In this document: positions 24,001 to 27,000 of the stretch, piece after piece
Layout of the letters: each line of letters opens with the position of its first letter
Position numbering within the stretch: position 1 is the first letter of the stretch
Assembly: GCF_048403405.1 (NCBI RefSeq)
Contig: NZ_CP183135.1
DNA length: 64,000 nt
Reading direction: 5' to 3' (one strand)
Source of the DNA: Escherichia coli
GTDB lineage: Bacteria; Pseudomonadota; Gammaproteobacteria; Enterobacterales; Enterobacteriaceae
Program-made: the position numbers

Positions 24001-27000
24001 ATCGCGGCGGGTGTCTGAGCCTTTCTGGTTCAGGCAAGACGCAGGTACCAGAAATGCGAAGACCCCACTCGTTAATCCATTAACTCGTGAGGTCTGCATG
24101 AAGTACCTTAACACTACTGATTGTAGCCTCTTCCTTGCAGGGAGGTCAAAGTTTATGACGAAATATGCCCTTATCGGGTTGCTCGCCGTGTGCGCCACGG
24201 TGTTGTGTTTTTCACTGATATTCAGGGAACGGTTATGTGAACTGAATATTCACAGGGGAAATACAGTGGTGCAGGTAACTCTGGCCTACGAAGCACGGAA
24301 GTAAGCTGCCGGGCGGGGACGGAAGTCCCCGCTTTCCGGAAGTGTGAGGTATTTCAGGGGCAGACACCCGACATGCCAGAAACAGCCGGTCCCGCCCGGG
24401 GCCGGCATCCTGGTTAAGGCATTTCCTGCTTTTCAGTCATTTCATTATCAAAATCACATTAAACGGTTGTAATCAGACATGATTTGTGCGCCAACACCGA
24501 TCATCGTCACAACTTTCAAGTCGCTGATTTCAAAAAACTGTAGTATCCTCTGCGAAACGATCTCTGTTTGATTATTGAGGAGGCGAGATGTCGCAGACAG
24601 AAAATGCAGTGACTTCCTCATCGGGAAAAAAACGACCTTACAGAAGGGGTAATCCTGTTCCTGCGAGAGAACGACAAAAAGCGTCTCTTGCAAGAAGGAG
24701 TGCCACTCATAAAGCGTTTCATGCCGTCATTCAGCTTCGACTGAAAGAAAAGTTAAGTGAGCTTGCTGATGAAGACGGGATCACTCAGGCACAGATGCTT
24801 GAGTGGCTGATAGAGTCAGAGGTTAAGCGCAGAAAATCTTTGTGAGTATTTGCGTTTCTTGCTGTTTCAGTGATGAGATGTTAGATTGCTGATCGTTTTA
24901 AGGAATTTTGTGGCTGGCCACGCCGTAAGGTGGCAGGGAACTGGTTCTGATGTGGATTTACAGGAGCCAGAAAAGCAAAAACCCCGATAATCTTCACCAG
25001 GTTTGGCGACTAAGAGAAGATTACCGGGGCCCACTTAAACCGTATAGCCAACAATTCAGCTATGCGGGGAGTATAGTTATATGCCCGGAAAAGTTCAAGA
25101 CTTCTTTCTGTGCTCACTCCTTCTGCGCATTGTAAGCGTAGGATGGTGTGACTGATCTTCAACAAACGTATTACCGCCAGGTAAAGAACCCGAATCCGGT
25201 GTTTACACCCCGTGAAGGTGCAGGAACGCTGAAGTTCTGCGAAAAACTGATGGAAAAGGCGGTGGGCTTCACCTCCCGTTTTGATTGCGCTATTCATGTG
25301 GCGCATGCCCGTTCGAAGGGACTGCGTCGGCGCATGCCACCGGTGCTGCGTCGACGGGCTATTGATGCGCTGCTGCAGGGGCTGTGTTTCCACTATGACC
25401 CGCTGGCCAACCGTGTCCAGTGCTCCATCACCACGCTGGCCATTGAGTGCGGGCTGGCGACGGAGTCTGCTGCCGGAACACTCTCCATCACCCGTGCCAC
25501 CCGTGCCCTGACGTTCCTGTCAGAGCTGGGGCTGATTAGCTACCAGACGGAATATGACCCGCTTATTGGCTGCAACATTCCGACCGATATCTCGTTATAA
25601 GGGCCATCTTCGTACCCTTCTTTCGACGCAATAGCTTTCAGTCTTGCGCTGGCACACGCTGAACTACCCGCATTACCATTACTACAGGCAGCAATAACCT
25701 CCTTATCACTGAATATCTTTTTCAAGCAATGCATCATATTTCTGCTGTGCCTTTTCACGCTCTGCCGGATCTTTACTGTTTTTAATCGTCTGTTTTGCTA
25801 TCTCAAGTTCTGTCTTTTCAGACACGCTCAGGTAGTTATTCTCAACAGCATTCTTCCCGCTCTGTGTGCTCCCACTGCAGCTGATGCGGTGCTGTTTCCG
25901 GTTAGACCGCCGGTCAGCCCTGCTGACACGGTTGCCAGCGTACTTATCGTCTGCTTCTGCTCTTCACTGAGGTCAGACAGCTTCACTCCCGGATACAGCA
26001 TTCCGATCGCTCTGGCTGCCAGCTCTCCTGTTGCTGCGCCTGCTGCACCAGCAGCAACATTATTACTCTGCATTGCTGCTACTGCACCGCCCAGAATGGC
26101 GTGAGCAATGGCCTTTACTGCCGGGTCTTTTTCTGTTGATTTCAGCAGGTATGCCAGTTCCGGAGCCGAAGCTCCCGCCAGTACTGCACCAACGTCACCA
26201 CCTGCCAGCTATGGCTGGAGATGGTGGATGTTACCGATAATCAAGAAGCCTTAGATATAAGGCAATGTTTTATCTTTCTTTCATACGAAAACCAGTGCTG
26301 CCATACTAGCCCTTTTCCTGTGACATCTAAGCGAGCTCATGTTTATCGGGAAGGGTGTTAAATCATTGTTAATCATACACAGGTAATTATGCAGCGGTTA
26401 TGCATAACTTCATTTCGAGCGTGTGATAACGCCAACACAACCACCAGAATTATAAAATAAAATCACAAAACCTGAGAACATATCACATTTTATCACATTA
26501 ATAATTTTTCTTTATGATTTCATAACTATTTACAGCCTTTTATTAAGCCAAAAAAAGTTAAATTGCAATTATTTCATAATTATTCACGCTACAGTTTTTT
26601 TACTTTTAAAATCATATAAATATATAATCACCTTAAAACAGCAAACTCCACAAAATAATAACAAATAGAGATATTTCCACCCAAATAATGACTATCTATT
26701 CATGAGCTGACATTATGAAATTAATCATTATTTAATGCAAGTAACACAAATTAAAACAAATACCTTAATATCCATTATTGTGTGAATCTCATCACAATAA
26801 TGTTTATTTTACCGCCTAGTATGAACCACGAAATCAATTGAAGTTAGCCGCCATGAAATTAAATACACAACATGGCGCATACCTTTTTATTCTAAAAAAA
26901 TTAAAGGAATAATTATGGAAAAACATTACGTCGGTTCTGAAATTGGTCAATTGCGTAGTGTTATGCTGCACCGCCCAAATTTAAGTCTGAAACGTTTGAC

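Follow-up and report, generated by a model that had tools for sequence, protein, structure and literature searches.

The DNA analysed here (the window) is a stretch of 64,000 nucleotides from contig NZ_CP183135.1 of an Escherichia coli genome (RefSeq assembly GCF_048403405.1). On its minus strand, at 25594..26210, lies a stub of about 615 bp that is related to cdiA, a gene of contact-dependent inhibition (CDI) systems. One end of the stub abuts a truncated repA1 gene, and the other is joined to the AT-rich region upstream of arcA, in an arginine deiminase (arc) module. We identify the stub as an orphan cdiA-CT remnant (a pseudogene; CT stands for C-terminal region), based on tblastn, Pfam, a match to the Protein Data Bank (PDB) entry 6VEK and the Prokaryotic Genome Annotation Pipeline (PGAP). 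Very probably, it is the 5′ part of an orphan cdiA-CT module that left a chromosomal CDI island together with the arc module, on which it was hitch-hiking.

With an intact CdiA of 3290 residues as the tblastn query, residues 2914-3119 match window positions 26208-25594 with E=1.9e-63. The stub corresponds to CdiA residues ~2914-3119. It thus spans the pretoxin region and VENN and reaches 81 residues into a cytoplasm-entry domain of the PtsG type. We also searched Pfam with a repaired translation, which is the reading of the stub corrected for two 2-bp insertions or deletions (indels), and found PT-VENN (PF04829, E=3.6e-20) and DUF6862 (E=6.8e-10). The part of the stub that follows VENN matches PDB 6VEK, the CdiA-CT of EC3006, with E=1.3e-37. 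At the nucleotide level, 26181-25594 is 95.6% identical to the intact cdiA of strain PG20180057, and the pretoxin part is 91-96% identical to the cdiA genes of several hundred genomes. The similarity of the stub to CdiA is far beyond chance. An earlier note on this DNA had reported a CdiA-like pretoxin and VENN region on the minus strand; both peptides that it gave are present, and the comparison with CdiA that it proposed returned the strong match described above, rather than a lack of pretoxin similarity. PGAP lists 25594-26184 as a "VENN motif pre-toxin domain-containing protein" that is frameshifted and incomplete at the N- and C-terminus. The exact feature is thus already annotated by RefSeq/PGAP, and what is newly added here is its provenance and exact breakpoints.

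Aligning both breakpoints, as had also been proposed, places the 5′ limit of the stub at CdiA residue ~2914 and the 3′ limit at position 25594, at repA1. The stub does begin just past an in-frame TAG, as the note had it: this codon, at 26213-26211, directly precedes LAGGDVG, the start of the stub peptide. The extent first given, 25597-26210, was correct to within three bases, the exact end being 25594. From its start, the stub runs for 121 codons ahead of VENN and continues 81 codons beyond it. The VENN codons, GTT GAG AAT AAC, can be read from the sequence at 25835..25846 (minus strand), in a shifted frame. Along with VENN, the stub keeps the Cys pair (AACSNGNAGSSAC) of the N-terminal part of the entry domain, and about half of this domain is left.

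The reading frame of the stub is broken at two sites, which we located in a three-way alignment of the window, the chromosomal orphan copy of E. coli E5 and an intact cdiA (L005). The first is a CACACA run at 25863..25868 (minus strand), where (CA)2 has become (CA)3, adding 2 bp. The second is a deletion of GC at 25711..25712 (minus strand; GATATT^CAGTGAT), which removes 2 bp and regains the original frame. These indels are 153 nt apart, so that about 50 codons between them, including VENN, are out of frame. The stub had been described as carrying a slip of 1 nt; it is indeed frameshifted, but by a 2-bp CA insertion, and the second lesion, the 2-bp GC deletion, had been overlooked. Both indels occur in every plasmid copy examined and in no chromosomal copy examined; in the three-way alignment, the chromosomal copies share the reading frame of intact cdiA at both sites. 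Among plasmids of the PLSDB database, all copies covering at least 80% of an un-shifted query have at most 98.5% identity to it. Because no PLSDB copy matches the un-shifted sequence at 99%, both indels are fixed in the plasmid lineage.

Most of a CDI system is missing from the window. The tblastn search with the 3290-residue CdiA found no signal peptide, two-partner secretion (TPS) domain, filamentous hemagglutinin (FHA) repeats or receptor-binding domain in the window, and tblastn revealed no cdiB, cdiI or further cdiA segment across the 64 kb (the best CdiB and CdiI matches had E=0.85 and E=1.8). The toxin domain is likewise absent: homology to CdiA stops at residue 3119, at the repA1 junction, and the tRNase domain, which resembles PDB 5I4Q, occupies residues ~3198-3290. 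We take 5I4Q to be the EF-Tu-dependent tRNase of NC101. The claim that no intact toxin or immunity gene is present therefore stands. Of the features of a functional CdiA, the stub has PT-VENN, and it lacks the N-terminal parts, the toxin domain and an uninterrupted frame with a start; of those of a cdiBAI locus, the window has neither cdiB nor an adjoining cdiI. The stub has no start codon, and stops occur in every frame. In a consensus scan, promoter-like matches near the stub were at background (6 found versus 4.2 +/- 2.1 expected), and the terminator scan likewise gave background. With its start codon, its secretion and toxin domains and an immunity gene all missing, we assign the stub no role in contact-dependent inhibition; its anatomy suggests an inert pseudogene remnant with no part in such inhibition or in immunity.

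Separately, the DNA just upstream of the stub, on the way to arcA, contains a short palindrome (GCCTTATATCTAAGGC) at 26248-26263, with a T-rich run after it. It was flagged as terminator-like on both strands and is conserved in chromosomal copies.

At its 3′ end, the stub meets a repA1 gene (25148..25600, plus strand) that retains codons 1-149 of 285. Translation then enters the antisense strand of the stub, which supplies one Leu codon and a stop, as seen from the list of open reading frames (ORFs) and from comparison with intact RepA. PGAP records 25148-25594 as a pseudogene, "plasmid replication initiator RepA; missing C-terminus". In place of the second half of repA1, and of all the replicon DNA that would normally follow, stands the cdiA/arc segment. 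To place the join, we compared it with the intact repA1 of the same plasmid (38538-38588) and with the E5 chromosomal orphan. This side-by-side comparison shows a microhomology, GTT, at 25594..25596 that is common to the repA1 and cdiA parents; the half-matches of the junction query overlap at query positions 150-152, which are the same three bases. No insertion sequence (IS) end is found at this junction. Judged from the sequences of both parents, the join is an illegitimate one of the microhomology type. The stub thus ends, as had been claimed, at a junction with a truncated F-type repA1 formed by recombination. It had also been called fused to repA1, but the two are convergent, tail to tail, and no translational fusion results.

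Upstream of the join, an FII-like replicon control region (24588..25155, plus strand) is preserved. It consists of copB/repA2 (24588-24845) and tap (25081-25155), both taken, like the extent of the region, from the PGAP annotation of a collinear record, and of the CopA antisense RNA (24973-25063, minus strand; Rfam CopA, 102.8 bits). Among the features of an IncFII replicon, copB, CopA and tap are therefore present, and a full-length RepA1 (285 aa) and the rest are not, with the caveat that the origin sequence was not searched for directly. An intact FII replicon lies elsewhere on the same plasmid, at ~37428-38973, with its repA1 at 38116-38973. A 201-nt CopA/tap stretch differs at 2 positions from its counterpart in the control region of the intact replicon (37557-38123), and one of these differences is inside CopA. 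The plasmid may carry a double dose of FII copy-number inhibitors.

On its other side, the stub is joined to the AT-rich arcA upstream region (26211..26914). This region leads into the arginine deiminase module proper (26915..32193, plus strand), whose annotated genes are arcA (26915-28135), arcC (28146-29057), argF (29142-30146), a yfcC-family gene (30194-31597) and argR (31678-32157), all on the plus strand. Homology to chromosomal islands ends at 32193. There, an IS66-family remnant (32194..33475, minus strand, by annotation) forms the argR-side border of the module; matches to IS66-family elements from other genomes start at ~32186-32194, where arc homology stops. From this coincidence of borders, it may be that the arc block was brought in, or bounded, by an IS66-family element. 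The stub, the AT-rich region of ~700 bp and the arc module together (window 32193-25594) align over 6602 nt with chromosomal islands of the E. coli strains E5 and 21AH007, at an identity of 99.47%.

Chromosomal islands of this kind show the stub in a more complete setting. PapRG-04-4 has a full-length cdiA, cdiI, the arc operon (inverted) and then a 5′-truncated VENN fragment. Strain 1303 has cdiI, arc, a VENN fragment, a small ORF and further toxin/immunity pairs, i.e., a typical orphan array. E5 has cdiB, a cdiA′ of 75 codons, an IS66 fragment, arc, the orphan and IS3; its cdiB and cdiA 5′ end are 96% identical to an NC101-type locus. B-JRPT-4119 has IS66-family elements on both sides of the arc block, and its orphan continues through the tRNase domain region to cdiI. 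Of the 106 residues of the encoded CdiI, all but 2 agree with the CdiI of the intact locus, and B-JRPT-4119 is the only chromosomal relative in which the orphan's cdiI is kept. On either side, chromosomal copies are longer than the plasmid copy: they hold ~300-460 bp more of the orphan, and they carry extra DNA past argR (a pyrBI-leader-like ORF). In the intact relative (L005), the entry domain aligns with residues 2-175 of 6VEK, and the toxin domain shows no mismatch in its alignment with chain A of 5I4Q. A PtsG-dependent entry domain is common to CdiA of strains 3006, NC101 and STEC_O31, and 6VEK is the CdiA-CT of EC3006 (PMC9424206).

The identical junction between the arcA upstream region and the 5′ end of the cdiA fragment carries three different CT tips in different chromosomes. 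These are an NC101-type tRNase tip (E5 locus 12093-12998), an IAENN-type glycine-rich tip (PapRG-04-4 locus 9093-10124) and a VENNALSL... tip that is followed by a small membrane-protein ORF (strain 1303 locus 9915-10907). Since one junction carries three tips, recombination in the pretoxin region took place after the arc junction had formed.

An observation that concerns E5 itself is that its main cdiA is cut to the first 75 codons by an IS66 tnpA fragment (E5 locus 5138-5608), with cdiB intact. The CDI system of the E5-type island is dead as well.

We surveyed 5426 complete E. coli genomes and the PLSDB plasmids for the two junctions. The arcA upstream region (query 26100-27100, at least 80% covered) occurs in 356 of the genomes and is always joined to the stub; in the records listed, the remaining matches to this query cover only its last 8%, which is the cdiA part. 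No E. coli record among the complete genomes or in PLSDB has the arcA upstream region without the stub. The stub-repA1 junction is found in 299 genomes, and a longer, chromosomal version of the stub in 42. In PLSDB, the arc junction is present in 253 plasmids, 252 of which cover at least 80% of a query spanning the repA1 junction; Klebsiella accounts for 13 of these records and Shigella for 2. No longer or un-frameshifted stub next to arc is present in PLSDB. It had been suggested that cdiI might be sought downstream in related plasmids; this search was negative, as 252 of the 253 arc-junction plasmids have the repA1 junction in that place.

Given these observations, we propose the following history. 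In chromosomal CDI islands, the arc operon has a cdiBAI cluster on one side and an orphan cdiA-CT module on the other, and the AT-rich arcA upstream region is fused to the 5′ end of the orphan (residue ~2914, after the TAG), a boundary that was already present in the chromosome. Originally, the tip of the orphan that gave rise to the stub was an EF-Tu-dependent tRNase of the NC101 type, preceded by the PtsG-type entry domain. From an island of this kind, a 6.6-kb piece, comprising argR-yfcC-argF-arcC-arcA and the first ~615 bp of the orphan, would then have moved to an IncF plasmid. One end of the piece would have been bounded by an IS66-family element, and the other would have been made by the illegitimate join at GTT, cutting the orphan 81 codons past VENN and repA1 after codon 149. 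The plasmid could have afforded to lose this repA1, since it has a second FII replicon that is intact. The stub would persist because it is linked to arc, which is under selection, and because the DNA around it, from arcA to the inactive replicon, is itself dead. What matters biologically is that the plasmid gained the arc operon, with the cdiA piece coming along as a passenger.

Transfer was probably from chromosome to plasmid, because the chromosomal copies are longer at both ends, have a native CDI context and are free of the indels, with the plasmid copy being a truncated subset of them. The survey also points to a single capture event followed by inheritance, because the junction is shared by 299 of 5426 genomes and by 252 of 253 PLSDB arc plasmids, and both indels are present in all plasmid copies.

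Some points weigh against parts of this account. First, the view that the stub is inert is drawn from its anatomy, and two short ORFs do lie on it, of 81 aa at 25828-26073 and of 72 aa at 25540-25758. Second, the +2/-2 pair of indels regains the frame, which could hint at selection on the reading frame. We rejected such selection: there is no start or N-terminus, the original frame is stopped at 25828-25830, and in ~1/3 of cases chance alone would make a second indel compensate for the first. Third, the means of transport, whether mediated by IS66 or otherwise, is no more than suggested by what borders the module.

The earlier note had inferred a past recombination between a CDI locus and an F-type replicon. 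It might seem natural that a cdiBAI locus recombined directly with the replicon and that the stub is what remains of a plasmid-borne CDI system, given that it directly abuts repA1 and that plasmid-borne full-length cdiA genes exist in E. coli. However, chromosomal islands have the very junction with the arcA upstream region that forms the stub's 5′ end, and the entire 6.6-kb block of arc and stub is 99.5% identical to these islands. The stub was thus already an orphan piece joined to the arcA upstream region, and it arrived as the end of the 6.6-kb arc module. Further, no PLSDB plasmid has a longer or un-frameshifted version next to arc, and the window holds no cdiB, cdiI or other cdiA. We therefore regard direct recombination with a CDI locus as very unlikely.

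A different proposal, to which we give still less credence, is that the stub continues to matter, either through a short product or because its ~360 bp of conserved pretoxin sequence form a patch of homology for recombination between plasmid and chromosomal cdiA genes. The absence of any start codon, with stops in every frame, argues against a product. The homology patch deserves more discussion, as, according to a review (PMC7662968), orphan modules probably exchange DNA with full-length cdiA by way of the conserved pre-VENN region, the three CT tips on one arc junction attest to past recombination at this place, and the identity of 91-96% to cdiA in several hundred genomes would provide partners. 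However, there is no toxin or immunity gene downstream to donate. In addition, the count of repA1 junctions, 299, was taken as equal to the number of genomes that have both junctions (342, less the 42 with a chromosomal version), and, judged from these counts, there is no hybrid between a full-length cdiA and the plasmid junction. A broader speculation starts from the constant weld of arc to the orphan stub in E. coli and would have CDI arrays serve as the entry point and launch pad of arc, and the pretoxin patch mediate exchange between IncF plasmids and chromosomal cdiA. We hold this to be highly doubtful, and its exchange component, which finds no support in the genome counts, to be equally so. 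If it were true, pretoxin exchange would lead to plasmid integration, or to loss or swapping of the toxin tip.

The least probable alternative, which we consider extremely improbable, is that the block of arc and stub arose on a plasmid and was later copied into chromosomes; plasmid copies do outnumber chromosomal ones (299 versus ~57) and plasmid segments do enter chromosomes (e.g., in NZ_CM132303.1), but the chromosomal copies hold more of the orphan (~300-460 bp) and more DNA beyond argR, and they sit in a native cdiBAI/orphan context without the two derived indels.

The segment in NZ_CM132303.1 is worth describing in its own right. At 296000-345000 (locus 28988-49001), a chromosomal copy of the plasmid segment studied here lies inside rhsB, with the arc operon, the IS66 remnant, IS1, IS110, an intact FII replicon, pemIK and the resistance region. 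Directly upstream of arcA, ISEcp1-blaCTX-M-15 takes the place of the stub and the dead replicon. This copy looks like an ISEcp1-driven transfer from plasmid to chromosome. Integration via cdiA homology was considered and rejected for this case, as the copy is in rhsB behind ISEcp1-blaCTX-M-15.

The stub adds no toxin, immunity gene or new mechanism, and in this sense its importance is low. Its value is that of a scar that points to a chromosomal CDI island as the source of a plasmid-borne arc operon. In addition, the cdiA-repA1 junction, along with the +CA and -GC indels, can serve as a marker of single origin for an IncF lineage that now carries CTX-M and NDM-5 genes.

Other features of the window concern its wider plasmid context. 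Because blaNDM-5 is present as an exact match (56122-56934, plus strand), the window comes from an NDM-5 IncF plasmid. This gene is within a resistance region (~43300-64000) made up of IS26, ISCR1 and class 1 integron components, ble-MBL, trpF, dsbD′, two copies of sul1, dfrA12, an aadA pseudogene, chrA, mph(A)-mrx-mphR and dfrA17-aadA5. Between finO and hok/sok, at 20215-23628, the annotation of the collinear record shows an IS1 split by an insertion of ISCro1 (IS66-family). The sok RNA (24009-24165) and hok (24155-24304) follow the split IS1. Compared to the reference plasmid p4_2_1.1, the window lacks an ISKox3 between traF and trbA (1670-2987 of the reference locus, absent at window ~2978-2985) and an IS3-family insertion after the FII replicon (39932-41145 of the reference locus).

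No component of this locus is new by itself: IncF plasmids with arc, F plasmids with an inactive second replicon, orphan cdiA-CT modules and the PtsG-type entry domain were all known before. Poole et al., in 2011, reportedly described orphan cdiA-CT/cdiI modules downstream of cdiBAI clusters. Such an orphan has been defined as a 5′-truncated fragment with conserved cdiA sequence upstream of VENN and no initiation or secretion signals (PMC7662968). The stub resembles these modules in that it has no start, signal peptide or TPS domain, has the conserved pre-VENN stretch and is flanked by IS remnants; moreover, its chromosomal relatives lie downstream of cdiA-cdiI. A location downstream of cdiBAI is seen in PapRG-04-4, strain 1303 and E5, and not in the window. 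The stub is, then, a 5′-truncated pre-VENN fragment, but not a complete CT with its cognate cdiI. It differs from the modules in being cut 81 codons after VENN, in lacking toxin and cdiI, in having two frameshifts and in being borne by a plasmid without cdiBAI. Compared to an NC101-type CdiA-CT, the stub keeps VENN and the N-terminal part of the PtsG-type entry domain, but is without the tRNase domain, the immunity gene and about half of the entry domain.

According to three reports that cite Billard-Pomares et al. of 2019 (PMC7671891, PMC7055906, bioRxiv 10.64898/2025.12.08.692488), the arc operon is enriched on IncF plasmids of CTX-M producers, and it confers a benefit in a mouse urinary-tract infection model and a cost in gut colonisation. 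The operon and the kind of plasmid described here are the same as those in IncF plasmids of E. coli that produce extended-spectrum beta-lactamases, with the stub adjoining the operon. These three reports are silent on a cdiA stub and on an origin in CDI islands. Literature searches combining pTN48 with arginine deiminase, orphan cdiA-CT with IncF, or arginine deiminase with contact-dependent or orphan returned nothing relevant.

The truncated replicon also has a precedent. The F plasmid carries RepFIC, which is interrupted in repA1 and is an inactive secondary remnant of the FII/FIC type in a multi-replicon F plasmid. Like such dead replicons, the one studied here has a truncated repA1, keeps copB, CopA and tap and is accompanied by an intact FII replicon elsewhere on the plasmid. 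It differs from them in the truncating DNA, which here is the arc/cdiA block, joined via microhomology and not via a transposon end.

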